In this document: positions 31,269-59,928 of the stretch, one piece after another
Position numbering within the stretch: position 1 is the first letter of the stretch
How the letters are laid out: the number at the start of each line of letters is the position of its first letter
Source: an uncultured bacterium
Lineage (GTDB): Bacteria > Babelota > Babeliae > Babelales > Vermiphilaceae
Direction of reading: 5' to 3'
NCBI GenBank assembly: GCA_963707655.1
Contig: OY970172.1
Location: forward strand, 960,001-1,024,000
Length of the DNA stretch: 64,000 nucleotides
Translations under genes and position numbers: made by a program
The notes under the pieces: generated by a model
Databases searched by the model: none
What the model was told of the DNA's origin: nothing
What the model saw: only the letters and a program-made list of their open reading frames with translations

Positions 31269-31327
31269 AAATTGCATTTTTCTTACTCCTCTATATACTA
31301 ATACATAATAATCATAGGGAGTTTATT

Positions 31328-32320: not shown

Positions 32321-32386
32321 ACGCAAGAAGTTCACTAGATTTTTGCCTGAGCGGGCAAGCTTGTTAACTGCTAAACATTCAATAAT
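32268..32386 (-). pseudogene. Relic of a transketolase 3' end
   Basis: Translates with one frameshift to IIECLAVNKLARSGK/SSELLAFKQIDASAIVAAIRRLL*, versus tkt SVECLAVSMLPRSGKAAELLAFEHIDAAAIVAAVHKLE*. Confidence 0.85.
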
Positions 32387-32462
32387 GCACAACATGAGCT
32401 AAAAACTAGCATTCATTTTACTTTTTATATAATAATACAGAGTAATTACTGAGGAGTTTGTT

Positions 32463-33497
32463 ATGAAAATGTTTTCTTATAAAAACTTTACCAGTCTATT
32501 GCTCGCTGTTTTGGTGCTCATTCTCTTGGTCGGCTGCAAAGGTCCCCTGAAAAATAACATCTTAGGACAGCCGCAGACCACTCTTGATACTACTGCCGAA
32601 TTAGTACAATCGACAAAAATACCCACGGAAGTCACGGTGTGGGTTCATGGAACCGCTCTGGTTCCGCAGATTATGCCAAATTTTTTTTATCGCAAACAGG
32701 GCTTCCACTCTGCACTCATCTATGAAGGGCGGTATCACCTGCGCAAAATCGTCAATAGCTTGCACGCTCAGGCTCCTGAGCTTTTCCCCCTTGAGCATTT
32801 TTATATTTTTGGCTGGAACGGCAAACTTAATTTTGAAGAAAGAAGAAAAGCAGCGCAAGAGCTCTATTATGAACTTATGAATCTTCACGATCTTTATCGC
32901 GAAAAATGTGGGGTTGCGCCGCGAATTAAAATGATTACCCACAGCCACGGCGGTAATGTTGCCCTTAATTTGGCAAAAGTAAAAGAGAAGAATCAGGATT
33001 TTGTGATATCGGAATTAATCATGCTTGCCTGCCCCGTGCAGGCAGAAACAATGCATCTGGTGAGTGATCCACTTTTTAAAAAGATCTACTCGTTTTATTC
33101 AGAAAGCGATTTAATTCAAATTATTGATCCCCAGGGACTTTATCACAACAAAATGACAGCGCATGGGTTATTTTCAAGTCGACTGTTTCCACAGTATTCA
33201 CATGTGTGCCAAATTAAAAGCAGACTGGGGAATCGTGGGCTGGCTCATATCGATTTTCTTCTGATGAGATTCATTAGCAATATGCCCGCCATCATGAAAG
33301 AACTTGCCCAAAGACAGAAGACTGATCAAAGCGGTTTTTATGCACTTTCAATACCAACAAGAAAAAACGGGCCATTTCATAGACGCAAAGTAAATAAATT
33401 TACTCTAGCTTGTGAACAGCTGCCACAATCGCCGCGGCATCAATGTGCTCAAACGCTAGCAGCTCGGCAGCCTTGCCCGAGCGGGGTAGCATGCTGA
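32463..33497 (+). CDS. Alpha/beta-hydrolase-like lipoprotein (paralogue 3)
   Basis: Lipobox LVGC; highly similar to paralogue 2; 3' end overlaps tkt by 98 bp. Confidence 0.8.
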   Translation: MKMFSYKNFTSLLLAVLVLILLVGCKGPLKNNILGQPQTTLDTTAELVQSTKIPTEVTVWVHGTALVPQIMPNFFYRKQGFHSALIYEGRYHLRKIVNSLHAQAPELFPLEHFYIFGWNGKLNFEERRKAAQELYYELMNLHDLYREKCGVAPRIKMITHSHGGNVALNLAKVKEKNQDFVISELIMLACPVQAETMHLVSDPLFKKIYSFYSESDLIQIIDPQGLYHNKMTAHGLFSSRLFPQYSHVCQIKSRLGNRGLAHIDFLLMRFISNMPAIMKELAQRQKTDQSGFYALSIPTRKNGPFHRRKVNKFTLACEQLPQSPRHQCAQTLAARQPCPSGVAC

Positions 33498-35283
33498 CAG
33501 CCAAGCATTCAACAGAAATATTGGTGTCTTTGAGCGCGTATACTACCGCCTGTCCCAGACCACCTTCCAGGTAATGGTCTTCAACAGTGATAATACGTGA
33601 ACCGGCCTGTGCAGCAACTTTTTTTATTGTTTCACCGTCGAGTGGCTTGATGCTATATAAATCAATCACGGCGACTGCTATTCCTTGTGCGGCCAATTGG
33701 GCATATGCTTTTAATGCTTCAAAAAGAGTTACTCCTGCACCGATAATGCAGGCCTTGTCCTGTTCGCTTTGACGCAGTACCTTGCAACCGCCAATAACAA
33801 AATTTTCGCTCTCATCGTAGAGCACAGGGGTATCCATGCGTGTTGTTCGCAGATAGGAAATGCCCTGGTTATATTCTACCATGCATGTCACCAAGCGGGC
33901 GGTGCTCACCGCATCTGCCGGATATAAAATTGCCGAGCCGGGCACGGTGCGCATAAATGCAATGTCTTCCAGCGCCATCTGCGAAGGGCCATCTTCACCA
34001 ATAGAAACTCCCGCATGTGAGCCCACCAAGCGTAATTTTGATTGGCCAATTGCAGCCATTCTGATCTGGTCGGCTGCACGACTAAAAAATGCACCGAATG
34101 TTGAAATAAATGGCACGGCGCCACGCTTTTCAAAACCAACCCCCATGTCTACCATGTTCTGCTCAGCAATAAAACATTGCACAAAACGTTCGGGAAATTT
34201 TTCTTCAAAAATATCGGCAAATGTTGAATTGGCAACATCTCCGTCCAAAGCAACAATTTTTTTGCACGCTGTTCCCAATAGAGCCAATGTTTTGCCATAT
34301 GCTTTGCGCGTGGCGATCATTTCATTTTTTCTGTAGCCGGGCGTCGGCAACTGAAATCCTACACATCCATGTTCTTCTACTGCATCGGGTGAAGGGGGTA
34401 ATTCTTGCTGCAACTTAACGGTGTCCGGATTAAACGAGGCAGCAAAATGAAAAAATCCCTTCAGTTGAGTCAAGATGCCGGGTAGTTCATCTTTTTTAAA
34501 TGCTTTGCCATGATAACCTTGTTTGTCGGCAACTTCAGGAACCCCATAGCCTTTTATTGTCTTGGCGATGATAACGGTTGGATGGGAGTGTTCAAGCGCT
34601 TCTCGCGCTTTATCAAGAGCAGACATAATTTGTTGCATGTCATGACCATCGATCACTAAGGATTTCCATCCAAAAGCAGTAAACTTATCTGCGTAACGCT
34701 GTGCATGGTGAGCGTGCATTGTTTCGCTGCTTTGGCCCAGTCTATTGCAATCAATGATAGCTACCAAGTTATGTAATTTATAAAATGCGGCCAATTCTGC
34801 TGCTTCCCAGACAGAGCCTTCAGCAATTTCCCCATCTCCCAATAATACATAGGTAGTAAAAGGAATTTTGAAGCGATTTGAATAAAGGGCCATACCGGCA
34901 CCAATAGAAAGGCCGTTGCCCAATGATCCCGTTGCGGCTTCCGTGTAGGGAAAGCGGGGGGTAGGATGCCCCTCAAGGGGAGAATTAAATGTTCTGTATC
35001 CCATTAATTCATCTTTAGGGAACGCGCCTGCTTCTGCCCAGGCTGCGTATAAAAGAGGGGCCGCATGCCCTTTTGATAGAATAAAGCGATCATTAGTGGG
35101 GCAATTAAAGTTGGCCGGGTTGTAGCGCATCGCATAAAAAAAAAGCGCTGAAATTAGATCAGCGGCTGAAAGACAGGAAGTTGGATGGCCGGAACCGGCT
35201 TCGCTTGTCACCTGCAATGAAGAAACGCGAAGTTTGTACGCCTTATGTTCTAAAACATTTCTGATCTGATGCTTATTAGGCAT
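33400..35283 (-). CDS. tkt: Transketolase
   Basis: SGHPTSC, DRFILSKGHAAP, TGSLGNG, TPP motif GDGEIAEG...N, GEDGPSQ. Confidence 0.95.
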   Translation of the reverse strand: MPNKHQIRNVLEHKAYKLRVSSLQVTSEAGSGHPTSCLSAADLISALFFYAMRYNPANFNCPTNDRFILSKGHAAPLLYAAWAEAGAFPKDELMGYRTFNSPLEGHPTPRFPYTEAATGSLGNGLSIGAGMALYSNRFKIPFTTYVLLGDGEIAEGSVWEAAELAAFYKLHNLVAIIDCNRLGQSSETMHAHHAQRYADKFTAFGWKSLVIDGHDMQQIMSALDKAREALEHSHPTVIIAKTIKGYGVPEVADKQGYHGKAFKKDELPGILTQLKGFFHFAASFNPDTVKLQQELPPSPDAVEEHGCVGFQLPTPGYRKNEMIATRKAYGKTLALLGTACKKIVALDGDVANSTFADIFEEKFPERFVQCFIAEQNMVDMGVGFEKRGAVPFISTFGAFFSRAADQIRMAAIGQSKLRLVGSHAGVSIGEDGPSQMALEDIAFMRTVPGSAILYPADAVSTARLVTCMVEYNQGISYLRTTRMDTPVLYDESENFVIGGCKVLRQSEQDKACIIGAGVTLFEALKAYAQLAAQGIAVAVIDLYSIKPLDGETIKKVAAQAGSRIITVEDHYLEGGLGQAVVYALKDTNISVECLAVSMLPRSGKAAELLAFEHIDAAAIVAAVHKLE

Positions 35284-36005: not shown

Positions 36006-36082
36006 GTGCCCGTAGCTCAGCTGGATAGAGCGACAGACTTCTAATCTGTAGGTCGTAGGTTCGACTCCTACCGGGCACACCA
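36006..36082 (+). tRNA. tRNA-Arg(TCT); integration target
   Basis: GTGCCCG acceptor, anticodon arm ACAGA-CT-TCT-AA-TCTGT, GGTTCGACTCC, encoded CCA. Confidence 0.97.
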
Positions 36083-37537
36083 CTTTCCAGTTTTTACTGT
36101 TTCCAATATCTCATTAAATACCGGTTTCAGCTGTATATCGAGCTTTTCATCTTTATAAGAGCAGTTCGAAACTAGAATATTGATCAATCGGCGTTTTTGT
36201 TCCGCATCTTGCTTTTGAAACAGTACAATCGCCTTTCTTGAGAGTTCTAAGACCAGATTCGCATTTTCAAGATAATTCTTATCGGCTCTTTGAAGCGCCA
36301 GAAGCTTTAAAGCTAAACGCTCTTTTTCTTCTATCCATTTTGATGCATGAGACTGCCAGAATTCTTCACTAATTTTTTTATCAATTTTATCCAGATATGC
36401 TTGATCGATTCTGTTCTGAAGAAATTTTATTTGTCGCTCTGTTTGTTGAACCAGCTTATTATGATAATCAACCTTTTCCTTTAAGCTCGATCGAAGACTC
36501 TCCATAATGATTTCCCGAGCTTGCTCTGAAATAGCTATATTTCTTAATATCCCCTCAAGCTGCGTTTCAAGAATCTCTTGCTTCAAATAAACCTGCTGAC
36601 AGTTGCCTTTATGACCGGTACATCTGTAGTAGATATATTTCTCTTTTTTTATTTCGGCAGTTAAAGAACAACCGCATATACCGCATCTGATTAAATTGGT
36701 ATAAGGAAATAGGCCTTTTCTTGATTTGTTTTTGTATGGATTCTTAAGCATTGTCTGAACTTTATGAAATAGCTCCTTACTCACAATAGCTTCATGAGAG
36801 GCATTTTCATACCGTTTCCCTCTCCAAGAAAAAACCCCGGTATAGAAATCATTTTTTAAAATGATTTCTACATTGCTGCTGTAAAAATTTTTACCATTTC
36901 TATAGATCATGCCATCAGCAAGCATCTTTTTGCGTAAATTGAGTAAAGAGTAAGATCCTGTTGCATATAATTCAAACATTTTCTTAATGAATAGTGCAGC
37001 ATCAGGGTCAACAACGATAACCTTTTTACCATCAACTTTGGCATTCAAATAACCATAAGGAGCAATCGATGGGTAAGTTCCCTGAGCAGCTTTTTCCTGC
37101 ATACCCTTTTTCACTTCTTCTGAGAGATTATCGATGTAATTTTTGGCCATCAAGGCCTTGATGCCAAAAATGAATTTTTCATTAGAGCGAGATTCTCGGC
37201 TTAGAGTAGAGTTTTCTTTCACAAGGTGAATTGTAATATCCGTTTGTGAAGTCAACTTATCAATTAAAGCATAATCAGACATGTTACGTGTAAGTCGATC
37301 TGTTTTTTCAACAAGAATGTGTTTTATGGACTGATCTTCATGAATAAGATTCAGCATTTTGTTGAACTGTGTACGCCCGGTCTTTTTTGCAGTTTCAACA
37401 TCAGTAAATTTCCCCACAACCGTATAGCCATTCTTTAGGGCATACTCATTCAAGATCTTGAGTTGGGCGGGTATGGAAAACCCTTCGGCTTCTTGGTCTT
37501 TAGAGGAAACTCGAGCATAAATGAGCGCTTTGTTCAT
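36068..37537 (-). CDS. Large serine recombinase (integrase)
   Basis: Catalytic YARVSS, DRLTR, recombinase domain PYGY, Zn ribbon CGICG/YYRC, coiled coil; stop codon lies inside the tRNA. Confidence 0.95.
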   Translation of the reverse strand: MNKALIYARVSSKDQEAEGFSIPAQLKILNEYALKNGYTVVGKFTDVETAKKTGRTQFNKMLNLIHEDQSIKHILVEKTDRLTRNMSDYALIDKLTSQTDITIHLVKENSTLSRESRSNEKFIFGIKALMAKNYIDNLSEEVKKGMQEKAAQGTYPSIAPYGYLNAKVDGKKVIVVDPDAALFIKKMFELYATGSYSLLNLRKKMLADGMIYRNGKNFYSSNVEIILKNDFYTGVFSWRGKRYENASHEAIVSKELFHKVQTMLKNPYKNKSRKGLFPYTNLIRCGICGCSLTAEIKKEKYIYYRCTGHKGNCQQVYLKQEILETQLEGILRNIAISEQAREIIMESLRSSLKEKVDYHNKLVQQTERQIKFLQNRIDQAYLDKIDKKISEEFWQSHASKWIEEKERLALKLLALQRADKNYLENANLVLELSRKAIVLFQKQDAEQKRRLINILVSNCSYKDEKLDIQLKPVFNEILETVKTGKWCAR

Positions 37538-37548
37538 AGCTGTATACC

Positions 37549-37716
37549 TTATTTGCTCAAAATTCCTATTTTTTTGTCCTCTTCCAGGTGGTTTTTGATC
37601 GCTTCAACCACCAATTCCTTCATAGTTTTACCTTTAATGGCGGCAAAAGCTTTAAACTTTTTATGGTCTTCTTCAGGGATATCAATGGTAATTCGAGATA
37701 AATTTTGTTTTTGCAT
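37549..37716 (-). CDS. Small ribbon-helix-helix (ParG/CopG-like) DNA-binding protein, 55 aa
   Basis: Manual translation MQKQNLSRITIDIPEEDHKKFKAFAAIKGKTMKELVVEAIKNHLEEDKKIGILSK; ends 11 bp before the LSR start; below the ORF-track cutoff. Confidence 0.8.
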   Translation of the reverse strand: MQKQNLSRITIDIPEEDHKKFKAFAAIKGKTMKELVVEAIKNHLEEDKKIGILSK

Positions 37717-37800
37717 AAAAAAATCCAATATTTACGAGACATTTTAATAGCTAATGATACAATAAAGATATAAAGAAATAAAGAAATACTTGGGGGTTTT

Positions 37801-38664
37801 GTGAATATATTCAGATATATATCGAATTTATTTGATAAGGGCGTCAATTTAAAGCCCTCTATTGAGAAAAAAATCACTATCAATAATGAACCTGATTCTA
37901 AAGAGACACGCAAAAAGAGTGCTCAAAGGGTCAGAAATATCTATGATCCCTTGTCTACCAAGCCTTATAAGCTAAGTCGTAGCAAAATAGAGCTTTTCAT
38001 GCGTTGTAAGCGTTGTTTTTATATTGATCGTCGATTAGGAGTTGGGCATCCTGACGGATATCCATTTTCTCTAAATATTGCAGTCGATGAACTTTTGAAA
38101 AAAGAATTCGATATTTTTCGTCTAGAACAAAAGCCGCACCCTCTCTGCCTCGAAAATAATGTAAATGCGATTCCATTTAAGCACGAAAACTTAGAAAGCT
38201 GGCGTAAATCGCTCCATGAGGGCGTTCAATACCATGTTCCTAATACAAATCTTCTCATCCATGGTGGCCTTGATGATGTTTGGATTAATCAGGATACTGG
38301 TGAACTTCTAGTCGTTGATTACAAAGCTACCTCAAAAAACGGAGAAATAACTCTAGATGCCGATTGGCAAATTGGTTATAAGCGCCAAGCTGAAATCTAT
38401 CAGTGGCTTTTACGTAAAAATGACTTCACGGTATCTAATACTGCCTATTTTGTTTACTGCAATGGTAAAAAAGACATGCCACTGTTTGATAAAAAACTGC
38501 ACTTTGAGGTTACCTTACTGCCTTATGTAGGGAACGATTCGTGGGTGGAAGAAGCAGTTAATGGAGCTTACAGATGTCTTCAAACTAACACTATCCCTGC
38601 AGCAGAAAAGTCATGTGACTATTGTCAGTATTGGAACGGTGTCACTAACCACTTAATAAAATAA
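37801..38664 (+). CDS. PD-(D/E)XK nuclease (RecB/Cas4-like)
   Basis: LSRSKI..CKRCFY, GGLDDVW, VVDYKAT, QAEIYQWLL, C-terminal CDYC. Confidence 0.85.
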   Translation: MNIFRYISNLFDKGVNLKPSIEKKITINNEPDSKETRKKSAQRVRNIYDPLSTKPYKLSRSKIELFMRCKRCFYIDRRLGVGHPDGYPFSLNIAVDELLKKEFDIFRLEQKPHPLCLENNVNAIPFKHENLESWRKSLHEGVQYHVPNTNLLIHGGLDDVWINQDTGELLVVDYKATSKNGEITLDADWQIGYKRQAEIYQWLLRKNDFTVSNTAYFVYCNGKKDMPLFDKKLHFEVTLLPYVGNDSWVEEAVNGAYRCLQTNTIPAAEKSCDYCQYWNGVTNHLIK

Positions 38665-38699
38665 CCATCAAATTTAAAAGATGTATTGATAAAGTAAAT

Positions 38700-41600
38700 A
38701 TGATCTCTCCAAAACACCTCAAAGCTACTTATTTTTCCTCAAAAGGACTATTTCATAACCTTTCTAGCTTTACAAGCTTGGAAAATCGGATAGCCAATCT
38801 TCCTGAAATTGAACGTGGAGATGCCTTTGAAGTCTTTGCTGAGGCCTATCTCAAAACCCAATCCCTTCATCAAGTCGAGGAGATATGGCCAGAAAAGTCG
38901 CTGCCTCAAAGTCTACGTGAATTACTTAATATTCCTTCTGACGCTGGTATCGATGGGGTTTTTAAGACATCTTCTGGTCATTATAAGGCTTACCAGGTTA
39001 AGTTTAGGTCGAACAGAGGCTCTCTAAGCTGGGGTGGTGATAGTTTGGGTAATTTCTTTGGTCAGGCTGATAGAGTGAGTGAGCGAATACTTTTTACCAA
39101 TTCAATGGATTTATCCGATCTAGCTGCCTCTCGCGTCAATTTTTATTCTATCAAGGGGAATGAGCTAGATTGCCTTGAGCCTTCAGATTTTAAAACCATA
39201 GAAGATTGGCTTAAAACGGGAGTTGCTCGACGAGAAAGGCTAAAGCCCAAAGACCATCAGCAACAAGCTATAAATGCGATTATAGATGAACTTAGCGTAA
39301 AAGATCGAACGACGGCTATTATGGCGTGCGGAACTGGCAAAACCCTTGTCGCGCTTAGAGCTGCTGAAAAACTTCAAGCCAAGACGATCCTGGTTCTGTT
39401 GCCATCACTTGCCTTAATAAGGCAGACGCTTCATGATTGGGCGCGGGATCATGGCTGGGAGAAATTTCACTTTTTATGTGTTTGTTCTGACCATACTGTC
39501 GTTAATGATGAAAGCGAAATGATCTTGTTTCAGCGAGATTTAGATTTTGCTGTTACAACTCAACCGGAAGAAATTGCAGCTTTTCTCAACAATGGTAATG
39601 TAGCGCCTAAAATTATATTTTCTACCTATCAATCCTGTCGAATGGTAGCCCAAGCGATGCCAGGCAATTTTGCTTTTGATCTAGCTATTTTTGATGAAGC
39701 ACATAAAACAGCTTCTCGTTTGGCGACAAATCATGCTTTTGCGTTAAGCGAAAACAATATTGCAATCAAGAAGAGATTATTTTTAACTGCAACACCCCGA
39801 CACTATAACATTGATGTAAAAGACAAGTTTGGGGATAACCAGCTAGTTTTTTCGATGGATGATGAGACTATTTATGGCCGTGTCGTGTATAAACTTTCAT
39901 TTAGAGCTGCCGTTGAGCAGGGCCTCATCTGTGATTACAAAGTACTTATCTCCGTAATCACCTCTGATATGTTGAATCGCGAGCTGCTTAAGCGTGGCGA
40001 GGTATTGATTGATGGTGATATCATCAAGGCGCAACGCATTGCAAATATTTTAGCGATACAAAATGCCGTAGAACAATATGGCGTTAAGCGAATCTTCTCC
40101 TTCCATAGTTCGATATCAGCGGCTAAATCATTTACCGCTAAAACCAATGAAGGCGTAGGCGCATACCTGACTGATTTCGCGACGATGCATGTGAGCGGTG
40201 AGATGTCGTCAAGCAAGCGAGATGCTATTTTGAGTGAATTTCGCGATGCAGAGAAGGCACTAATTTCAAACGCTCGTTGTTTAACTGAGGGTGTAAACGT
40301 ACCAGCAGTTGACATGGTTGTTTTTGTTTCACCTAAGAGAAGTAAAGTTGATATTGCACAGGCTGCCGGTCGTGCAATGCGTAAGCATCCAGGCAAAGAG
40401 CGTGGCTATATTTTGATCCCATTATTCATGCAAGACGCAGGACAAGAAGAGCTAGAGCAGGCGCTTGCAAAAACAAAATTTGATACAGTCTGGGACGTGC
40501 TTCAGGCAATGTGCGAACAGGATGAGAGTTTAGTGGAAATTATCGCTAAGCTCAGAGAAGCTCGTGGCAGGATACTTGGTGTTAATGATAGTAGGCTGAG
40601 GGAGCGCGTAGAGATACTTGGACCAGAACTCGCCTTAAAGAGCTTGCGTGATGCAATTACAACAAGGATGATTGATAGGCTTGGTTTATCTTGGGATGAA
40701 AGATTTGGACAACTGGTTAGATTTAAAGAAGAGAGTGGCCATTGTTTGGTCCCTAATCGATATCCAGAAAATCCTGGTCTTGGGCAATGGGTACAAAAAA
40801 ATCGATGGGATTACAAAAAAAATGCGCTGGGATCTGAGCGTATTAAAAGATTAAACGAGATAAATTTTGCGTGGGATTATGAGGAGGCAATATGGAATAC
40901 ACGATACTTAGATCTTTGTCATTTTCAACAAATTAACGGTCATTGTAATGTGCCTCGTAATTATCATGATAGGCAGTTGGAATATTGGGTAGGCACTCAG
41001 CGAGTTTCCTATAAAAAAGGTAAGTTATCCAGTATTCAGATAAAACAGTTAGAAAAAATAGGGTTTGTCTGGGATTGTATTGAGGAAAACTGGCATAGCA
41101 ACTATTCGATGCTCGCTGAATTCAAACAAAAAAATGGTCATTTTGTCGTTCCAAAAGATACGCGCGAGAATAAGCAATTAGCTACTTGGGTTTCTGCTCA
41201 GAGAAAACTTCAGAAAAAAGGTAATCTATCTTCAGAAAAAATTTATTTACTTGAACAAATTAACTTTATGTGGGATCCGGTAAAGGCAATCCTCGAGGAG
41301 AGATTTTCCCAAATACTAAGTTTTTTTGAAAAAAATGGACACTGTAATGTTCCCGACAGCTATGACGAGATAGTTCCTGGATTGTGTTCCTGGCTTCGGT
41401 CTAGAAGAAATTTATATCGGAAAAATTTGCTAGATATTGATCAGATAAAACGCCTAGAGGAAATGAAAATTAAGTGGGACCCTTTTGATGCTAATTGGGA
41501 AGAGCAATTCGAAGCTTTAGTTCTTTACAAGTCGAAGAACGGCCATACCTCTGTGTCTAAAAAATATCATGAAAGCCCATCTTTGGGATTATGGGTGTTA

Positions 41601-43160
41601 CGTCAACGATCAAAATATCGTGAGGGAAGCCTAGCAAAAGAACGCGTTGAGCGACTAAATAGCTTGGGCTTCGAGTGGGAATTGCCTAAATTAAAAAAGG
41701 ACGTTGTAGCACAAGAAAGAAAGTCATATTCTGAGATTTGGGAAGAAAGATTTATCTTGTTGCAGCAATATAGAGATATCCATAATCATTGTAATGTACC
41801 TCAAAATTATCAAGATAAATCGCTTGCCATGTGGGTTGGAACGCTGCGTACACTCTATAACAAAAGGAGTCCACGACTTTCGGCTGAAAAAATCAAGAAG
41901 CTTGATGCCATTGGATTCGACTGGGAGCCTACGACATCTCAGTGGGAAAATATGTTCTTAAAATTGCGTGAATTTAAACGCGTTTACGGACATTGTAATG
42001 TGCCGAGAAGCCAACGGCTTCTTGCTACATGGGTGGGCGTGCAACGTAAGCAGCATAAGAAAAATAGCATGATCCCTACCCGCATAAGTAGATTGAATGA
42101 AATCGGTTTTATATGGGACGTTAAAAAAGAATACTGGCATAAAATGTTTCATGAATTAAAGAAATTTATTGAAATTAATGGGCACTGTAATGTTTTTAGA
42201 ACAGGCAAGCTGGGCAATTGGGTTGCAAACCAGAGAGGTAATTATAAACGAGGAACGTTACCGTCTGCTCAAATTAACAAACTTAATGAAATAAATTTTG
42301 TTTTTGTCCCCTATGCTACAGCTTGGGAGAAAAATTATAGTGATTTATGCCTGTTTGTTAGGGAAAATGGGCATTGCATAATTACGTCTGAAACCCTTGT
42401 GAGTTCCCCACTCCTTACTTGGGCTCATAACCAACGTTCTGATTACAAAAATGGGAACCTATTCATAGAACAAATTAAAAAACTTAATGATATTGGTTTT
42501 GTTTGGGATTTCTTGGCTTATAAATGGGAAAAAAACTTTGAGGAGTTGCTGAAATTCAAAAGTGTTCATGGGCATTGCAACGTTCCTGGTAAGTTCAAAG
42601 AAAACATTTCCTTATCTCATTTCGTTGTTGCACTTCGTAAAAATTATAAAAAGGGAATTTTGTCTAAAGAACAGGTTAAACGGCTAAATGATCTCGGCTT
42701 TATTTGGGATGTTTTAGAAGAGCAATGGGAAAAGAAATATCAAGACTTAATCAAGTTCCATGAAATTTATAGCCACTGCAATGTTCCAAATGATTATAGT
42801 GATCAAGGGTTACTCTCTTGGATAAAAAATCAACGTACTTATAAAAAATTAGGCAAGTTATCTCCAGAGCGAGTTTGCAAACTAGATGCAATTGGGTTTG
42901 TTTGGTATGTATTAGATACTTCTTGGGATGATGCATTTACAGCTTTATGTTTATTTAAGAACACTTATGGGCACACTAAAGTTCCTGCAACGCGCGTTAT
43001 TAACAATATTGCTTTAGGTAATTGGGTCAGAACGCAACGTGCAGCTCATCAAAATAATAAGCTTACTAAAGAACGTTTTGAAAAATTACAGAGCATAGAT
43101 TTTTCTTGGGCCATTATGGCACGATCTCAAAAACAAACATCCAAACTATCTATGGAGTAG
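38700..43160 (+). CDS. Restriction-endonuclease-like domain + SF2 (DEAH) helicase + 12 helicase-associated (HA) repeats
   Basis: N-terminal GDAFE..DAGIDG..YQVKF; MACGTGKT, STYQS, DEAH, TATP, LTEGVNVP, QAAGRAMR; twelve W..........GHCNVP...WV..QR...L..IGFVW units. Confidence 0.9.
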   Translation: MISPKHLKATYFSSKGLFHNLSSFTSLENRIANLPEIERGDAFEVFAEAYLKTQSLHQVEEIWPEKSLPQSLRELLNIPSDAGIDGVFKTSSGHYKAYQVKFRSNRGSLSWGGDSLGNFFGQADRVSERILFTNSMDLSDLAASRVNFYSIKGNELDCLEPSDFKTIEDWLKTGVARRERLKPKDHQQQAINAIIDELSVKDRTTAIMACGTGKTLVALRAAEKLQAKTILVLLPSLALIRQTLHDWARDHGWEKFHFLCVCSDHTVVNDESEMILFQRDLDFAVTTQPEEIAAFLNNGNVAPKIIFSTYQSCRMVAQAMPGNFAFDLAIFDEAHKTASRLATNHAFALSENNIAIKKRLFLTATPRHYNIDVKDKFGDNQLVFSMDDETIYGRVVYKLSFRAAVEQGLICDYKVLISVITSDMLNRELLKRGEVLIDGDIIKAQRIANILAIQNAVEQYGVKRIFSFHSSISAAKSFTAKTNEGVGAYLTDFATMHVSGEMSSSKRDAILSEFRDAEKALISNARCLTEGVNVPAVDMVVFVSPKRSKVDIAQAAGRAMRKHPGKERGYILIPLFMQDAGQEELEQALAKTKFDTVWDVLQAMCEQDESLVEIIAKLREARGRILGVNDSRLRERVEILGPELALKSLRDAITTRMIDRLGLSWDERFGQLVRFKEESGHCLVPNRYPENPGLGQWVQKNRWDYKKNALGSERIKRLNEINFAWDYEEAIWNTRYLDLCHFQQINGHCNVPRNYHDRQLEYWVGTQRVSYKKGKLSSIQIKQLEKIGFVWDCIEENWHSNYSMLAEFKQKNGHFVVPKDTRENKQLATWVSAQRKLQKKGNLSSEKIYLLEQINFMWDPVKAILEERFSQILSFFEKNGHCNVPDSYDEIVPGLCSWLRSRRNLYRKNLLDIDQIKRLEEMKIKWDPFDANWEEQFEALVLYKSKNGHTSVSKKYHESPSLGLWVLRQRSKYREGSLAKERVERLNSLGFEWELPKLKKDVVAQERKSYSEIWEERFILLQQYRDIHNHCNVPQNYQDKSLAMWVGTLRTLYNKRSPRLSAEKIKKLDAIGFDWEPTTSQWENMFLKLREFKRVYGHCNVPRSQRLLATWVGVQRKQHKKNSMIPTRISRLNEIGFIWDVKKEYWHKMFHELKKFIEINGHCNVFRTGKLGNWVANQRGNYKRGTLPSAQINKLNEINFVFVPYATAWEKNYSDLCLFVRENGHCIITSETLVSSPLLTWAHNQRSDYKNGNLFIEQIKKLNDIGFVWDFLAYKWEKNFEELLKFKSVHGHCNVPGKFKENISLSHFVVALRKNYKKGILSKEQVKRLNDLGFIWDVLEEQWEKKYQDLIKFHEIYSHCNVPNDYSDQGLLSWIKNQRTYKKLGKLSPERVCKLDAIGFVWYVLDTSWDDAFTALCLFKNTYGHTKVPATRVINNIALGNWVRTQRAAHQNNKLTKERFEKLQSIDFSWAIMARSQKQTSKLSME

Positions 43161-44228
43161 TTTTTTAAGCGCAACAATTTCTTCTGGCGCTAAATCGAAT
43201 TCTTTGTTTTTATCTAATGATCTCATTATTTCTCCCTGCCTATATTCATCTACGCTGCCATAGCTGGTGAATGTTGTTAATGGATTATTATGACCTATAT
43301 TTTGACTCCATACCTTAAATTCTTCAGGAGTTTTGCACAACTTGTAACCTAATTGAGCTACGGTGTGACGAAATGAATGCGGATTGTAGTAGGTTAGTCC
43401 AGCATTGTGAAATGCCTCTTCTATCACTTTTCTCAATGATGTAGTTGATTTCCATGGAGTCGAACCAAGCAGCGTCCTGCTGAATTTATCATTAGCGCCC
43501 AGTGACAATGCGGTACAAGGAAATAATGGAGCTTCATCATCAAATAGCTTTTCCTTCTTTAAGAAATTTACCCACTCAATGAAGATTTGCTTAAGGAAAT
43601 CGCCTACAGGAAAAAAGTAGGTAATAATCATCTTGCTGTTTTTTGTTTTTACCTCGTCCGGACGTTGCTCTATGCGTTGCTCGTCCAAAAGTATGTGCTT
43701 AAGTTTGAATGAAGCTACTGCCTGAATTCTTGCGCCACTAATGGCCATAAAAGCTATGAGAGCACGGTTCCTTTTTTGAATCTCAGTTTCTGCCGGCATG
43801 CTTTTTACCACATGTTCTATTTGTTCCAAGGTAGGGTAACGTTTAGGTTTTTGAGTTCTTGCTATTCTGATGTCTTTATCTTGTAATTTGAAATACGCAA
43901 TTTCACATGAGCGTATTCTGCTTCTGTACCCAGGCTGCGTCACCAGCCACTTGAAAAAGTCACTTAGGCTTCTTGTGGCATGTAGCAGGTAGGTTTTACT
44001 GACAAGCGTTTCCGTGCGTTTTGATTTCTTTTGCATAAGATGTTTTTTGAATCCGATAGCGTCATTCTTGTTAAATAACTTGAAGCTTTTAAAGCCTGTG
44101 TATTCCTCATAAATATACAGGTAATTTTGGATGTTAATAGCAGTTGAGCTGCTCTTGCCATTAGCCTCCTTTTCCCATTCCAAATACTTACGTTTAATTC
44201 GTTCGTTTTCAGCGTTATATTTGATCAT
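43146..44228 (-). CDS. Tyrosine recombinase
   Basis: GARIQA, KTK, HSFRH, IGH, TFTSYG catalytic set. Confidence 0.9.
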   Translation of the reverse strand: MIKYNAENERIKRKYLEWEKEANGKSSSTAINIQNYLYIYEEYTGFKSFKLFNKNDAIGFKKHLMQKKSKRTETLVSKTYLLHATRSLSDFFKWLVTQPGYRSRIRSCEIAYFKLQDKDIRIARTQKPKRYPTLEQIEHVVKSMPAETEIQKRNRALIAFMAISGARIQAVASFKLKHILLDEQRIEQRPDEVKTKNSKMIITYFFPVGDFLKQIFIEWVNFLKKEKLFDDEAPLFPCTALSLGANDKFSRTLLGSTPWKSTTSLRKVIEEAFHNAGLTYYNPHSFRHTVAQLGYKLCKTPEEFKVWSQNIGHNNPLTTFTSYGSVDEYRQGEIMRSLDKNKEFDLAPEEIVALKKLLHR

Positions 44229-44240
44229 TTTAGTCTCCTT

Positions 44241-44732
44241 TTATTTGATGGTGGTAGCGGGGGTGTTGTCACACTCTATTAAATTTTTTTGCTCTAGCCC
44301 TTCTATATGGAAAATTTTCGTAAAGGTATCTATTTTTGAAGGCGATATTGTTCTATTGATGCTCGATCCACATATCTCACATATACCAACGAGATTTGTT
44401 CGTTTATTGTTATGGTGAATACGGACTTTGTTATCTTTGGTGTACCTTGCCTTCTGGCATTTGCAGCAGAACAATTGGTTTTCAGCGCAAGGTTTTTTTC
44501 TGCCAGCATTTCTTACACTTAGAAAGTCGATTAAATCTTGTCCCCATATCAAGTACGGTAGTTGATCATCTATTTTCTTGAGCCCCGTCTTTAACCAGTC
44601 GCTAATGGTACCTTTATCAACCTTGAGAAGCTCTTTGATCTCTTCTATGGAATAGGAGTTTGCGCTTCTGATGATTCTTGTATTAAATCTTTTCCGAAAC
44701 TTCTTTACGTTTTTCTGCTTTTTCTTGTACAT
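44241..44732 (-). CDS. Helix-turn-helix protein with C-terminal zinc ribbon
   Basis: YSIEEIKELLKVDKGTISDWLKTGL (excisionase-like HTH); CCKC and CEICG. Confidence 0.75.
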   Translation of the reverse strand: MYKKKQKNVKKFRKRFNTRIIRSANSYSIEEIKELLKVDKGTISDWLKTGLKKIDDQLPYLIWGQDLIDFLSVRNAGRKKPCAENQLFCCKCQKARYTKDNKVRIHHNNKRTNLVGICEICGSSINRTISPSKIDTFTKIFHIEGLEQKNLIECDNTPATTIK

Positions 44733-44863
44733 CTTTCATATCCCACTCGAGCAATAAATCAAAAAGATCAATTAATGGCTGGATATCAGATTTGATTTCT
44801 AGCCTATCTCCTTGCTGAGTTATGCTTTGCTTTTTTATGTCCATCGGTACTACTCAACAAAAT

Positions 44864-45136
44864 TTAGAATGCGCTATTAATGATTGCTTCATATTTGCGT
44901 ATGACAACATCTTCAATTGCTGTCGCAATCTCTTTGTTGATAGGATGAAAAATGGGCATACTACTGTTTAATGTTTTTCGAGTTGGGTAGGTCAACCTAT
45001 AACCACCTTGTGGGCGTGTATATATTCCTATGGAAGCAAAATAAAATAAGCTATCGAACGTGAAGCTTGCAAACGCTACAAGGCCGTCCTTTGGCTTGAG
45101 TGGAATTATTTGTATTTCTGATACCTTGTCTTTCAT
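44864..45136 (-). CDS. SpoVG-family nucleic-acid-binding protein
   Basis: GLVAFASFTFD...YPTRK...IFHPINKE pattern. Confidence 0.75.
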   Translation of the reverse strand: MKDKVSEIQIIPLKPKDGLVAFASFTFDSLFYFASIGIYTRPQGGYRLTYPTRKTLNSSMPIFHPINKEIATAIEDVVIRKYEAIINSAF

Positions 45137-45218
45137 AATCTTTACCTTTTGGGTTAAGGGTTAAGCTTTAACTGAAGACAAGGTAATAAAAAGGGTTCGG
45201 GCCCGGCTGGGCCCAGAA

Positions 45219-46235
45219 TTAACAGAGATATTTTGGATTAATTTGAACAGTATCATCCTTGATAAGAAGAAATTCTGGATGACCCAACTTGGCTACATTC
45301 TTGTTTATGCTACGACAAATCTCATAAATATCCGGACCTTCCTTTGCGTGATCGTTGTTCATAATCTTTTCGCTAATAGTTTCAAATTTTAAGGCTCTTT
45401 TTTTGATAAAGCTGTCGCCAGGAATTAGCATTTTCAAAACGATACGCGAATCACTATTTTTTTTGAAATTCGTTGATCCATCATTAATTTTAAGCTTGCC
45501 ATTATTAGGGTCATAAGAAATTGTGTATTTCACTTTTTCTTGAGTTACAGCTAATTGCCTCTCAAAAAAATCAATCGTATATCTTAAAATACGATTCATA
45601 TGAACTCGCAAATCAGGAATATTTTCTTTCTTTAGTTCTTGCTTGCCTTGACCATAATTGATATAGATGCGTGCTAGCTTATCCCAGCTATACCAAATGC
45701 GAGTTTGTTGAATATCTTCAAGGCGATTTTTTTCGCTATTCCACAAATAGAAACTTGGTGTAAAAATACATTCTTGCACTCTCCCTTCTTCATCTAAAAC
45801 TGCGCTTTTTTTGAGAAGACATTTTGCCTCTTTCGAGTGATTTTCTGCCAATGACCAAACAAAATCTCTTAATATTCTGTATTTAGCTATCATAGGATTA
45901 CTAATTGCCGCCATGTTGCTATCGCGATATAGTTCGAAAGCAAAAACATCATTGAATATAGGGTGGTAGTTTTTGCCATATTTTTTTGTTTGGTAATCCC
46001 TATATTCATAATATGCCAACTCCATTTCATATTCTGCTGCTTCCGTTAGATCTTGTAATAGCTGAGCATTATTTTTTGCTTCCCCGAGTATTTTTGTATT
46101 TATATGCCCCAGGTCGACATTTTTATCGTACTCAGCCATAAAGTCATAGATGAGCAACCCAAATAAGTTAGGATCATCGATCTGATTATTGCAGAGTGAT
46201 TGTAGTTTATTAACATTAGACTGGTTTTGTTGCAT
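45219..46235 (-). CDS. Hypothetical protein with possible C-terminal winged-helix domain
   Basis: 338-aa ORF with GAGG RBS; C-terminal IYEICRSINKNV...VQINPKY resembles a wHTH. Confidence 0.65.
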   Translation of the reverse strand: MQQNQSNVNKLQSLCNNQIDDPNLFGLLIYDFMAEYDKNVDLGHINTKILGEAKNNAQLLQDLTEAAEYEMELAYYEYRDYQTKKYGKNYHPIFNDVFAFELYRDSNMAAISNPMIAKYRILRDFVWSLAENHSKEAKCLLKKSAVLDEEGRVQECIFTPSFYLWNSEKNRLEDIQQTRIWYSWDKLARIYINYGQGKQELKKENIPDLRVHMNRILRYTIDFFERQLAVTQEKVKYTISYDPNNGKLKINDGSTNFKKNSDSRIVLKMLIPGDSFIKKRALKFETISEKIMNNDHAKEGPDIYEICRSINKNVAKLGHPEFLLIKDDTVQINPKYLC

Positions 46236-46339
46236 CTTCTTTACCTCTTAAAATACGTTTTTTATATTCTAATCGGTAAAAGTAGATTCTCTAAGCAAAA
46301 AGTACCTGTTCTATCGCATTTATGTTAGTCTGTTCGAAG

Positions 46340-46374
46340 GTAAAAGTTCTAAAATAGTCCGATAGGGCACACCA
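46340..46374 (+). other. att junction 1 (P arm + tRNA 3' core)
   Basis: GTAAAAGTTCTAAAATAGTCCGATA-GGGCACACCA. Confidence 0.9.
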
Positions 46375-46584
46375 GCCTTCGCTTATTAGTCGCCAAGGCT
46401 ATGGCGGACAGGCCGGGGGCAAGATAGAGCTCGGCGAAAGCCTGAAGAAGCTCGTGAGAGCGAAGACAGGCAAGCTTCGTCTGGCTGCCGCCAGCAACTT
46501 TTTCACCCATTCTTTGCATCTTCATAAATCCTTGGTATATCTACTAAGACTTTTTTTATAGGAATCTGACCTTTAGGGAGAACT
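46372..46584 (+). repeat. Unit leader: nested hairpin repeats + conserved 5' region of the toxin gene (copy 1 of 4)
   Basis: Near-identical copies at 49337-49551 and 52190-52404; shorter copy at 54687-54864; each ends GGGAGAACT-ATG. Confidence 0.92.
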
Positions 46585-48489
46585 ATGAAGATTATCATTC
46601 TGATCAGTATCTTACTACAAATAGTGGCTATCCAAGCGGTATATCCCAATCGAGAGTTGACGACAAACTGGGATACCTCAACGCGAAATCGAGGCATATC
46701 ACAAAATAGTCTTGCTAAGATGAACCGTGCTCAATATATAAAAAATATTGCCGGTATCAACAGCCATTCTTCTTTCACTCCCTCTCACATTACATCCGGA
46801 ACACCTGCATACACGATGCTGCATGAGCCGCACAAATGCGCATCGTGGCAGGGGAGTGACTATTGGAATGCAATTGTCCAGGCATTCGGGCTTAAAGCAT
46901 CAATAGACAAGAATTATTATATTCCGTTCGGACTGCGTGAGTATGGCTATACTAGTGATTCACAGATTTTGTATATTCATGACGACAATATAATCCGCAT
47001 TATGCAGCAGGGGAAACTTTATGATTACGACAATTTCTGGTGCTTTATTAGCCAGTTTGATTCGTATGAATCAACACTGTTGCAACTGTTTAACAATGGC
47101 ACGCAGCGCAGCCAGCTTTCTCAAAAAGCGCGGCAGAAAATGCAACAAGAATGCACTCGCATTACTGAAAAACAACTGACAAAAGAGCGGGAGCAACAGC
47201 AGCGGTATCAGGAAGAATCGGTACGAAAACATTTTCAAGGAGAGCTTCCAGTAATTGAAGATTCAGTTGATGAGCAACAAGAATTGCATGATATTGCCCA
47301 TACATATAATTTGCATAACAAAAATCATTATGAAACGCGTCTGGCTGCCCTTGAAGATGTGGTAAGTAATAGCAGATATACCCGTGACGTGTACACTCTC
47401 GATGATGATGTGATAAGGATTCTGTCACAATCAGAATGCGATGCCAAACAATATACGACCAATTATGGCAATCAATTGCAGCAAGTCATTCACCGTGAAT
47501 GCATCGATATTGTCTCGCAAACAGCGCAACTCTCTGTCCGCTCTCCTCTTTATGATTATAAAAATTCATTAGCTAATTTTACCGATTCGGCGCGTTCATA
47601 TAACCAGGAAGGCTCATCTGGCAAAGCGATGCAAATCAATGATTTTTGCTATGCATTGCTCGATTATGGCTCAGCCATTGTTGAGGGCATTGCCTGCGGT
47701 GTCATTGGTGCAGCCAAAGATATGATTAACCATCCAGTTCAAACAGCATTGTGCGTGGTGGCCAGTGAATATGTGTTGGCCTATCAATTACTTAAAGTCA
47801 CCACCAACCTTGCCTCCATCGGTATATGCTATGCCTTTGATAAAGAAGCCGGCGCGCAACAATGGCATGATTATATTGAGCCAATAACGAATGTGATCAG
47901 CGCTATCAACAATAAAGAGGTAACGCTGCGAAACGGCATTAAAGGAGTTGTTGCCGTTGGCACCGGCATATATGCGCAAGGCAAGATGCTGAAAGGTCTA
48001 AACTCTTTTTATAGCACAACAAAAGCAAAGGCTTTTGAGTTTGTCAAAAACAATCCGTTGGTAACTCCGACTGAATATATGTCCACTCCTGAGGGAGTAT
48101 TATTTAAGGCTATACGCAATGCTCAAGAAGGATTGAATGATATTTCAGGAGAGGTTAAATCAGCATTAGATGGTATCAAAAATGACTTGAAGATGCGTTT
48201 CGAACAGCGAAGCTTGCAGCACATGTTTAGTCGGCATGCAAAGGATTTTGGAATATGCAAAGCGTGGAACAAGGCCACAGCCGTCGAGTTTGAAAAAATA
48301 ATTTTTGACCACATAAACACTGTTCACCCGATTAAAGGTACTTATCGTGGTGTACAAGAGGTTTTGCATTATTTTGATAAAAACAGCGGCCTTAATGTTA
48401 TGACGGATAAGGCCGGATCTCTTATTGGCGGATGGAAGTTAAGTGAAGATCAAATTAAATATCTCTTGTCGACTGGAGCGCTAAAATAA
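46585..48489 (+). CDS. Polymorphic toxin 1: signal peptide, conserved core, colicin D-like tRNase C-terminus
   Basis: C-terminus LQHMFSRHAKDFGI...GTYRG...HYFDKNSGLNV...GGWKL matches the colicin D nuclease pattern (KHAGDFGI, GTYR, SGWK). Confidence 0.85.
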   Translation: MKIIILISILLQIVAIQAVYPNRELTTNWDTSTRNRGISQNSLAKMNRAQYIKNIAGINSHSSFTPSHITSGTPAYTMLHEPHKCASWQGSDYWNAIVQAFGLKASIDKNYYIPFGLREYGYTSDSQILYIHDDNIIRIMQQGKLYDYDNFWCFISQFDSYESTLLQLFNNGTQRSQLSQKARQKMQQECTRITEKQLTKEREQQQRYQEESVRKHFQGELPVIEDSVDEQQELHDIAHTYNLHNKNHYETRLAALEDVVSNSRYTRDVYTLDDDVIRILSQSECDAKQYTTNYGNQLQQVIHRECIDIVSQTAQLSVRSPLYDYKNSLANFTDSARSYNQEGSSGKAMQINDFCYALLDYGSAIVEGIACGVIGAAKDMINHPVQTALCVVASEYVLAYQLLKVTTNLASIGICYAFDKEAGAQQWHDYIEPITNVISAINNKEVTLRNGIKGVVAVGTGIYAQGKMLKGLNSFYSTTKAKAFEFVKNNPLVTPTEYMSTPEGVLFKAIRNAQEGLNDISGEVKSALDGIKNDLKMRFEQRSLQHMFSRHAKDFGICKAWNKATAVEFEKIIFDHINTVHPIKGTYRGVQEVLHYFDKNSGLNVMTDKAGSLIGGWKLSEDQIKYLLSTGALK

Positions 48490-48490
48490 C

Positions 48491-48961
48491 ATGCCTGAAT
48501 ACTTTGACATCTCACTTATCATCGGAAAAAGTGAACTACAAAAACAGCAATTACAGGATTTTTTATTACACACCTTTAATCTACACGAAGAAGAAAACGA
48601 TAGCCTTCGCAATGAAATTTCAGCATTCAAAAATGTTATTCTTACCATCTATGAATCAGAGGAAATTAATTTTATAGAGTTTGGTATAAGTATTCCGAAA
48701 TGTGTTTTTCATAAAAAATCATTTGATAGAGAGTTTAATCCTATTGATTTATTTATTACGCGTTGTCTGAAAGAATGCAAATTCATTCGATTCGCTTTAT
48801 GTAGTTATGAAATGAATGCATACTATATCGGCAAATTACAAAGAATTGAAGATTTCACCCCGCTTTTTTTAGCGCATTTTCCTATCACTTACTCAAAAGA
48901 CCTGCACAATGAGTCATTTTCAAAAATAATTAATACAACGGCGCAGGACATTTTTGTTTAA
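48491..48961 (+). CDS. Candidate immunity protein for toxin 1
   Basis: Starts 1 bp after the toxin stop; small and acidic; positional inference. Confidence 0.7.
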   Translation: MPEYFDISLIIGKSELQKQQLQDFLLHTFNLHEEENDSLRNEISAFKNVILTIYESEEINFIEFGISIPKCVFHKKSFDREFNPIDLFITRCLKECKFIRFALCSYEMNAYYIGKLQRIEDFTPLFLAHFPITYSKDLHNESFSKIINTTAQDIFV

Positions 48962-49002
48962 TGTGTTCAATAAAATGGTTGCTTATGTAGCGAGGTAAGG
49001 CC

Positions 49003-49209
49003 ATGCAAAATAGATTAACGAATGAAGAAGCTTTTAATTCCATGAGGCTTTTTTTGGAAGAATATTACAAACGAACATCATCCGATGATATTGGTTCGCT
49101 GTTGGGGGATTTAATTCTTTTAGCAGACCAAACAACAGCAGATCCAGCCGCTTGGGAAGATTGGATGGACTGCGTTAAAAAAGTTAAAGAGAAAGAATAT
49201 CCATTGTGA
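49003..49209 (+). CDS. Small acidic protein, probable orphan immunity protein
   Basis: GAGG RBS; EEAFNSMRLFLEEYY...ADPAAWEDW. Confidence 0.6.
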   Translation: MQNRLTNEEAFNSMRLFLEEYYKRTSSDDIGSLLGDLILLADQTTADPAAWEDWMDCVKKVKEKEYPL

Positions 49210-49304
49210 TGGAGGCATTTTTGAAGAGCATCTGTATTTAGTAGCTTTAGATACCTATCGCAAAAAGTATTTGCTTAATCTGACTTATGCTCAAGTCTTC
49301 ATAA

Positions 49305-49339
49305 CAAAAGTTGCTGAAATAGTCCGATAGGGCACACCA
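49305..49339 (+). other. att junction 2
   Basis: CAAAAGTTGCTGAAATAGTCCGATA-GGGCACACCA. Confidence 0.9.
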
Positions 49340-49551
49340 CTCTTCGTTTATTCCGCCGTCGCCAAGGCTATGGCGGACAGGCCGGGGGCAAGATAGAGCT
49401 CGGCGAAAGCCTGAAGAAGCTCGTGAGAGCGAAGACAGGCAAGCTTCGTCTGGCTGCCGCCAGCAACTTTTTTACCCATTCTTTGCATCTTCATAAATCC
49501 TTGGTATATCTACTAAGACTTTTTCCAGGAATCTAACTTTCAGGGAGAACT

Positions 49552-51483: not shown

Positions 51484-51485
51484 AT

Positions 51486-52040: not shown

Positions 52041-52157
52041 GGCTCTTCCAAGCACACCTTAACAAAGTATATAGGGATAAAATATCCTTGATGGCTTTTT
52101 TGCTAATGACCAATATCACCCAAAGACCATATTGCCAAAACTAACGAATTGTCCACA

Positions 52158-52192
52158 GAGAAGTTGCTGAAATAGACCGATAGGGCACACCA
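52158..52192 (+). other. att junction 3
   Basis: GAGAAGTTGCTGAAATAGACCGATA-GGGCACACCA. Confidence 0.9.
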
Positions 52193-52404
52193 CTCTTCGT
52201 TTATTCCGCCGTCGCCAAGGCTATGGCGGACAGGCTGGGGGCAAGATAGAGCTCGGCGAAAGCCTGAAGAAGCTCGTGAGAGCGAAGACAGGCAAGCTTC
52301 GTCTGGCTGCCGCCAGCAACTTTTTTACCCATTCTTTGCATCTTCATAAATCCTTGGTATATCTACTAAGACTTTTTCCAGGAATCTAACTTTCAGGGAG
52401 AACT

Positions 52405-54614: not shown

Positions 54615-54654
54615 ACACAATTTCTTGACCTGATTGAGAACATCAGCTTCAAAA

Positions 54655-54689
54655 GAAAAGTTGCTGAAATAGACCGATAGGGCACACCA
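54655..54689 (+). other. att junction 4
   Basis: GAAAAGTTGCTGAAATAGACCGATA-GGGCACACCA. Confidence 0.9.
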
Positions 54690-56788: not shown

Positions 56789-56794
56789 ATAACT

Positions 56795-59807: not shown

Positions 59808-59869
59808 GAAAGATCATCACTAAAAGTATCGGCCCAACCTGACTCATGTTGACCTGATCACAATCACAA

Positions 59870-59928
59870 CAAAAGTTGCTCAAGTAGTGCGCACATAAGT
59901 GCCCCGATAATCCAATAGGGGCACACCA
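59870..59928 (+). other. att junction 6, degenerate, with internal inverted duplication
   Basis: CAAAAGTTGCTCAAGTAG...GTGCCCC-gataatccaata-GGGGCACACCA. Confidence 0.75.

Follow-up and report, generated by a model that had tools for sequence, protein, structure and literature searches.

The locus and the predicted circle

The window analysed here, a stretch of 64,000 nt (contig OY970172.1 of assembly GCA_963707655.1, positions 960,001–1,024,000), belongs to the genome of a parasitic host bacterium of the Babeliae; this genome of 1.09 Mb is contained in one contig and is 88.6% complete by markers. It carries a 10.3-kb island with a G+C content of 37.6% (41.3% for the genome), and the integrase of this island, a large serine recombinase (LSR), is encoded by a gene that runs across the island end into the tRNA gene used as the target (Table 1). 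In the window list of open reading frames (ORFs), the LSR ORF occupies 37537-36068 on the minus strand and encodes 489 amino acids; its last four codons and its stop codon lie inside tRNA-Arg(TCT), and the protein ends in WCAR. The Resolvase (PF00239), Recombinase (PF07508) and zinc-ribbon (PF13408) domains are all recognised by Pfam, and the YARVSS motif, which contains the catalytic serine, is invariant across 12 aligned LSRs.

Table 1. Features of the island, of its attachment (att) sites and of the array beyond it, in window positions
Feature	Position	Strand	Basis or remark
tRNA-Arg(TCT), target gene, intact after integration	36006..36082	+	ARAGORN; the genome's sole Arg(TCT) gene
T-loop GTTC, putative zinc-ribbon-domain motif of the attB half site	36059..36062	+	found again in attR arms, 5 bp more distant from the core
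LSR, integrated form, 489 aa	36068..37537	-	domains; homologue fold matches SPbeta and Bxb1 integrases
attL identity block, tRNA 3' end including CCA; antisense encodes LSR codons 486-488	36073..36082	+	
Ribbon-helix-helix-type ORF of 55 aa directly upstream of the LSR, perhaps an autoregulator	37549..37716	-	ParD/ParG-like Pfam matches
PD-(D/E)XK nuclease, cargo	37801..38664	+	domain match
SF2 helicase, 1486 aa, 12 helicase-associated repeats, cargo	38700..43160	+	domain match
Tyrosine recombinase, 360 aa, accessory, unlikely integrating enzyme	43146..44228	-	domain match; in 5/42 related loci
163-aa ORF, probable DNA-binding protein, travels with the tyrosine recombinase	44241..44732	-	weak matches only
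SpoVG-like protein, most constant companion gene	44864..45136	-	domain match; in 24/42 related loci
338-aa ORF, no known family, final island gene	45219..46235	-	ORF list, no family match
Detached LSR 3' end: core, 24-codon tail and stop, ending Leu-Phe-Ala	46291..46374	-	frame reading, selection tests
attP-arm GTTC, the T-loop motif displaced by 5 bp	46346..46349	+	
attR identity block, right end of the island	46365..46374	+	
Second core and tail, 30 aa, after toxin-immunity cassette 1	49247..49339	-	
Third core and tail, 29 aa	52103..52192	-	
Fourth core and tail, 31 aa	54594..54689	-	
Fifth core (one mismatch) and tail, 30 aa	57356..57448	-	
Sixth core and degenerate tail with insertion	59822..59928	-	

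The last 10 bases of the tRNA, GGGCACACCA, form a core at 36073-36082 that is repeated at 46365-46374. Six copies of this 10-mer are present in the window, compared with 0.07 expected from shuffled sequence, and a search of the 1.09-Mb genome returns six exact copies, all at this locus. Reading the minus strand from 46374 to 46291 in the frame of the LSR gives 27 residues followed by a stop codon, and joining the two cores in silico yields a circle that encodes an LSR of 512 amino acids. The proposal of a first-pass annotation of this DNA, that the integrase gene is split by its own att site and would be 512 codons long on the excised circle, is thus confirmed at the level of core geometry and reading frame. 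The annotation also took the core at 46365 as the island end, which stands, although this core is the first of six downstream copies and not the only one. A search for the circle junction in four sequencing runs found no joint between the island ends, but the coverage of the island in these runs is too fragmentary for this to carry weight; island DNA occurs in five read sets at shares of 0.06-0.18, and no RNA set is among the matches listed.

Integrated ends, tails and att-site DNA across the clade

The named close homologues of the LSR are from Babeliae/Dependentiae. Among the best 30 loci of the phylum (the window's own included), the LSR gene ends at the CCA of a tRNA gene in 29, with tRNA-Arg, Ala, Asn and Glu as targets; at the thirtieth, the contig end is reached while the tail is being read. 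The LSR end is marked by a tryptophan codon that is the antisense of CCA, and the residues that follow trace the acceptor stem. A stop codon is encountered within 4 codons in 17 of the 29 tRNA-integrated relatives, and the other 12 read 9-18 codons of antisense tRNA, which makes the integrated ends arbitrary, with 3-18 residues. The TAG in the T stem of the window's tRNA is therefore incidental, and the earlier view of this stop as a designed feature is not retained.

Among 120 listed LSR homologues, 50 have short ends, 50 read through a tRNA, 11 (chosen by eye) carry a tail like that of the window, and 9 are broken or unclear. The suggestion that homologues away from tRNA genes would carry the extension is therefore borne out by these natural tailed proteins (11/120). 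For the only tailed gene whose DNA is in hand (L064), the contig of 9.8 kb contains no tRNA, and at another locus (L150) the end of an older LSR gene adjoins a newer tail, forming a tandem junction within a chromosome; these two cases give circles and tandem islands as the sources of tailed genes. Distant relatives from metagenomes and viral contigs (34-53% identity) likewise end in antisense tRNA, in antisense transfer-messenger RNA (tmRNA; L035 and L041) or in tails. The clade comprises 4,720 clusters at an E value of 1e-30. A second LSR of the host genome (L171, G000:C1:250758-252203; 486 aa, 31% identical) ends likewise in a tRNA gene, tRNA-Asp, and no 8-base core copy is found within 52 kb upstream of it.

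An upstream core copy of at least 9 bases is present at 15 of 39 related loci that have an LSR end, and a tail-bearing 8-base copy is present at 2 more; the remaining loci show no core copy within the DNA fetched. At 57 distant loci, a search for attR with a strict pattern gave no hit in the 10-kb flanks. When the nearest core copy of at least 9 bases is taken as attR, a definition based on DNA only, the LSR frame is open for at least 20 codons at 13 of 16 sites (window included; one of the 13, L160 at 8242 bp, does not resemble a tail and could be open by chance). At the same 16 sites, the other two frames are open in 3 and 1, and 2000 shuffles give a mean of 4.0 and a maximum of 10. Frequent in-frame stops in homologous attP arms, which the annotation named as evidence against its proposal, are thus not what is seen. 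This comparison relies on the DNA-defined attR set, since the 0 stops in the 16 tails used for the selection test are circular, those tails having been chosen as open.

In codons 12-26, which lie beyond the att motif, the differences by codon position are 0.56, 0.45 and 0.69 (14 tails). The ratio of nonsynonymous to synonymous changes (pN/pS) over these codons, calculated for tails of 26-31 residues only (shorter tails of 13-18 and longer ones of 33-41 were left out), comes to 0.69 with 16 tails and to 0.64 with 8 disjoint pairs, compared with 1.03 for column shuffles, none of 2000 of which is as low. These comparisons indicate that the tail is real protein-coding sequence under purifying selection. 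When the C-terminal 56 residues of a tailed homologue were used as the query, the sole match was that homologue.

The tail codons 4-11 coincide with the attP arm, and this overlap bears on how the conserved residues are read. In 17 element pairs, the match between the T-loop and the tail arm peaks at 0.58 for a shift of +5, with all other shifts at or below 0.33, whereas an inner motif matches best at a shift of 0 (0.59; next 0.42); the 5-bp shift is established for one arm pair only. The zinc-ribbon motif is displaced by 4-5 bp between the attP and attB sites of LSRs (PMC11722253), and because the observed shift fits this spacing rule, the T-loop is taken as the zinc-ribbon motif of attB; from this we infer that one part of the attB recognised by the LSR is the T-loop of the tRNA. 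The att identity blocks are 9-12 bp long in 16 of 17 pairs. A symmetry scan gives 0.36-0.40 at four centres with no centre standing out, and the crossover dinucleotide is not fixed by it. The GAAC motif is read in the LSR tails as Arg-Thr or Arg-Asn; viral relatives use the other two frames, which give Ser-Asn or Leu-Glu. The conserved Arg-Thr/Arg-Asn dipeptide would then be partly a by-product of att DNA, and the LSDYF-RT segment, which had been regarded as purely a protein motif, overlaps the attP DNA motif.

Possible functions of the tail

The residue at the end of the tail suggests a possible role in protein turnover. Alanine is terminal in 7 of the 11 close natural tailed proteins and makes up 3.9% of the internal residues of those tails. 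It is also terminal in 11 of 24 motif-defined tailed proteins (a set that includes 2-3 false picks) and in 6 of 14 attR tails, compared with 9 of 112 tRNA read-through ends and 45 of 617 host ORFs. Of 105 distant loci, 19 were set aside (12 lacked a C-terminus and 7 a stop), and a split of the remaining 86 complete C-termini by DNA only gives a terminal alanine in 10 of 26 without a T-arm and in 3 of 60 with one; on viral contigs the counts are 8/11 and 1/10. Alanine ends occur in all three reading frames of the GAAC motif, with tails that are unrelated in sequence across the frames, and four different codons are used for alanine at codon 27. This recurrence across reading frames supports the part of the first-pass annotation that proposed a degradation tag. 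Additionally, the tag encoded by the host tmRNA (window 10723-11091), read by eye, ends in Ala-Ala-Ile-Ala. This tmRNA scores 142 bits with Rfam; it was missed by ARAGORN, which also gave no tag.

On this basis, the tail may be a degradation tag that is present only on the circle-encoded enzyme and damps re-integration, an interpretation that we hold tentatively and rate at slightly under an even chance. In this mechanism, the LSR would read the T-loop as the outer attB motif, with crossover at some point in the final 10 bases of the tRNA. Integration would leave a complete LSR core with an arbitrary end of 3-18 residues, and excision would restore the 24-residue tail, whose nonpolar and usually alanine C-terminus, like the host tmRNA tag, would make the circle-encoded enzyme short-lived. 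The integrated island would supply a stable recombinase for excision, acting with a directionality factor, perhaps the SpoVG-like protein, and the excised circle would supply an unstable one, which would damp immediate re-integration. Such a tail would be a protein-level counterpart of the sib retroregulation of lambda.

ClpXP, one of the two proteases named in the annotation, is rejected as the reader of the tag in this host, since neither ClpX nor ClpP is found in the genome (88.6% complete by markers). Among 121 genomes of the phylum, no full-length ClpP match was obtained and 16 matches were weak and partial, although tmRNA is present in this host. Lon, FtsH and Prc are present in the host genome; Lon and FtsH degrade proteins with tagged or nonpolar C-termini, and Prc is usually periplasmic. 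The reader would then be Lon or FtsH. The FtsH match is split over two frames, and internal stop codons interrupt a second Lon-like gene; either may reflect an assembly error or a broken gene (the FtsH/Lon-like pair lies at G000:C1:462393-464115 and 12619-14916).

Several observations weigh against a degradation tag, in addition to the lack of a detectable ClpXP. Roughly one tail in two lacks a terminal alanine, and the sequences compared are related, so the significance of the excess is overstated. On metagenome contigs, the excess is weak (2/15 without and 2/50 with a T-arm, the first class including missed tRNA forms), and a stricter DNA rule leaves 5 complete attP-type cases, of which 2 end in alanine (1/56 in the comparison class). 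Moreover, in an AlphaFold2 model of a natural tailed homologue (P0012, 515 aa; alignment of 108 rows), the tail is predicted as two helices (489-498 and 506-514) with a pLDDT of 94-95 up to the last residue, a result more in keeping with a packed element than with a free tag.

This model has a pLDDT of 93.8 overall, and its long helices 341-388 and 394-423 form a coiled coil inserted in the zinc-ribbon domain, as in the SPbeta and Bxb1 integrases; the match to SPbeta has a Foldseek E value of 5e-19 and, with VIA, a Z score of 19.6 (rmsd 11.2, 452 residues aligned). Solved LSRs align mostly up to residues 476-484 of the model (two rows reach 495 and 498), and the tail starts at 489. The integrated form therefore keeps the conserved fold, unlike the splits of the SSV1 type. 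The position of the tail outside this fold agrees with a degradation tag, as does the existence of lineages whose tails have 13-18 residues.

The ordered two-helix tail suggests an alternative in which the tail docks on the zinc-ribbon/coiled-coil region as a structural switch: the tailed form would favour attP x attB recombination, the tailless form would favour or permit excision, and, in the manner of Mx8 IntP, there would be little need for a directionality factor. Purifying selection spread along codons 12-26, beyond the terminal residue, is consistent with this, and a complex prediction for the tail and the C-terminal domain gives a weak score of 0.47, against 0.00 for the best of 3 controls, with a contact agreement of at least 88% and a partner pLDDT of at least 67. 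Of 157 solved complexes and 215 mismatches, 116 and 2 reach the mark used for such predictions, with only 18 of the solved complexes but both mismatches scoring at or below 0.60; the two halves of one split gene also tend to reach it. Directionality factors bind at the zinc-ribbon/coiled-coil junction (PMC11722253, PMC11795197), and the title of a cited paper points to a possible toggle at the extreme C-terminus of SprA. However, docking at that junction is not shown by the prediction, which returned no interface, the tails in the three frames share no sequence, and several lineages have tails of only 13-18 residues, so that the second tail helix is dispensable. The switch is possible but rather unlikely in our estimation, and it can hold together with a degradation tag.

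A different role was put forward for dsiB, whose authors consider that full function may be attained only on the circle or beside another island (PMC3146451). Applied here, only the tailed form would be active, and the integrated form would be crippled until a circle or a tandem neighbour supplies the tail, much as in SSV1. The arbitrary ends of the integrated forms and the chromosomal junction of an older LSR end with a newer tail at L150 agree with this proposal, but the integrated form retains every domain of the solved LSRs, most close full-length matches in the phylum lack an internal stop, and excision requires an active enzyme from the integrated state; we regard it as doubtful. It is still less probable, to the point of being a poor explanation, that the tail is a space-saving accident, that is, a tolerated filler with no constraint other than the attP motif in its DNA and the requirement for a stop codon. 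The overlap of codons 4-11 with the attP arm, the frameshifted nearest attR copy of L141 and the shortness of some tails would be expected of filler, whereas the pN/pS values beyond the DNA motif, the preferential opening of the LSR frame at attR sites and the excess of terminal alanine would not. Finally, that the 360-aa tyrosine recombinase of the island made the att sites is scarcely credible and this candidate is rejected, even though tRNA islands are described as targets of tyrosine integrases (PMC4383910), since the gene is present in only 5 of 42 related loci while the LSR ends at a tRNA CCA in 29 of the best 30 loci of the phylum, the identity blocks are short and the 5-bp motif shift is a signature of LSRs.

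Integrase genes that contain an att site are already known. The closest layout is that of DsiB (PMC3146451; McMurdie 2011), whose gene always overlaps attL in islands at the tmRNA gene (ssrA) of Dehalococcoides: as here, an LSR gene on the opposite strand crosses attL at its 3' end, its stop lies beyond the island, and the islands occur in tandem. DsiB differs in its tmRNA target and in having a second, small serine recombinase, DsiA, and in the part of that work available no tail is defined and neither a selection test nor an experiment is given; the targets here are tRNA-Arg, Ala, Asn and Glu, a tail is identified in natural proteins, and the likeness is one of gene layout, not of sequence. 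No dsiA-parB-mom module is present among the island ORFs. In the Myxococcus phage Mx8, attP lies within the gene for IntP and integration gives it a new 3' end (PMC6070905, PMC4383910), which alters the enzyme activity without inactivating it (PMC6070905). IntP is, however, a tyrosine recombinase, so the serine recombinase described here is not a member of its group, and its altered end is not described as a degradation tag in the portion consulted (PMC6070905).

In mycobacteriophage BPs, C-terminal tags on Rep and Int are used in the way proposed here for the LSR tail, and integration removes a degradation tag encoded beyond attP (PMC3694055), as would be the case for the putative tag here; the BPs attP, however, lies in the repressor gene, Int is tagged in both states, and the proteases are ones such as ClpXP (PMC3694055). 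The suicidal integrases of SSV1 and pTN3 also have an att site within the integrase gene, split at a tRNA, but they are archaeal tyrosine recombinases that are cut into two inactive pieces (PMC8371274), whereas the loss here is confined to 24 terminal residues that lie beyond the conserved fold. SSV1, named earlier among the analogues, is less close than Mx8 IntP and DsiB, since the integrated form keeps every LSR domain. The canonical LSRs (SPbeta SprA, Bxb1, phiC31, A118/LI) share the domain order, the fold and the 5-bp shift between attP and attB motifs, but most align only up to 476-484, before the tail, and the sources as consulted do not describe an attP within their genes.

The locus bears on how integration and excision are controlled in LSRs without a known directionality factor: its two DNA states encode natural proteins that differ by 24 residues. 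A clade of serine integrases that target tRNA 3' ends also runs counter to the Islander statement that tRNA genes are not a known target of serine integrases (PMC4383910). The word tRNA does not occur in the main text of Durrant 2022, the TIGER/Islander announcement does not address this LSR design, and no paper defining this tail was found (DsiB being the nearest) in a search whose coverage did not extend to subscription papers and supplements. Here the att site within the integrase gene is found in a tRNA-targeting LSR clade, with new evidence for how the site is read and a testable degradation-tag hypothesis; the function proposed for the tail comes from sequence. Such LSRs would have targets in almost any bacterium. 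Additionally, chromosomal annotation gives the LSR genes of this clade the wrong C-terminus (100 of the 120 homologues are integrated forms), which matters when LSRs are mined as tools.

Island genes and the core-plus-tail array

A homologue of the ribbon-helix-helix ORF adjoins the LSR in 9 of 29 loci, and a homologue of the 163-aa ORF is present in 4 of the 5 loci that carry the tyrosine recombinase. The island SpoVG-like protein is 26% identical to the host spoVG product, and the two genes are distinct; its constancy beside the LSR is noted in Table 1, and it is a candidate directionality factor or single-strand binding protein. The SF2 helicase and the adjoining PD-(D/E)XK nuclease are possible defence cargo.

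Beyond the island, in an array at 46375-59928, five further cores are found at 49330, 52183, 54680, 57439 (one mismatch) and 59919, each preceded by a related tail frame and each followed by a hairpin repeat instead of an LSR end. The array tails no longer end in alanine, and three of them run on past the alanine position. The hairpin repeat also follows CCA directly in at least 16 of the 38 tRNA genes of the genome (by a simple pattern) and may be the right arm of attB or a miniature element moved by these LSRs. The first four intervals of the array contain polymorphic toxin genes with probable immunity genes; the toxin genes share their N-termini (80-97% DNA identity) and differ in their C-termini, one of which has a Colicin D domain. 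The toxin copies at 52405 and 54865 are frameshifted, a stub is present at 59112, and the fifth unit carries PEBP, peroxiredoxin and DJ-1 genes. In a second array of the genome (L170, G000:C1:312098-318567), tRNA-Arg(TCG) is followed by two core-plus-tail sites without an LSR, and its toxin gene is 78% identical to a toxin gene of the window. The further core-plus-tail copies may be remnants left by older islands, or right ends that could be used in place of the first.

Taken at its broadest, the degradation-tag interpretation would describe a large LSR clade for which the T-loop, universal among tRNAs, serves as attB and whose own attP senses the state of the element, with a circle-only C-terminal tag kept independently in at least three reading frames as a protein-level retroregulation of the integrase. 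The six attR-type sites of this locus would offer a choice of right ends, and excision could thereby gain or leave toxin-immunity cassettes and change the tail of the LSR. This combined scheme is speculative, and we consider it unlikely to hold in full.

Elsewhere in the window, at 30400-33500, three tandem paralogous genes with a spacing of about 1.0-1.1 kb share an HSHGG motif, and their products are presumably alpha/beta hydrolases.

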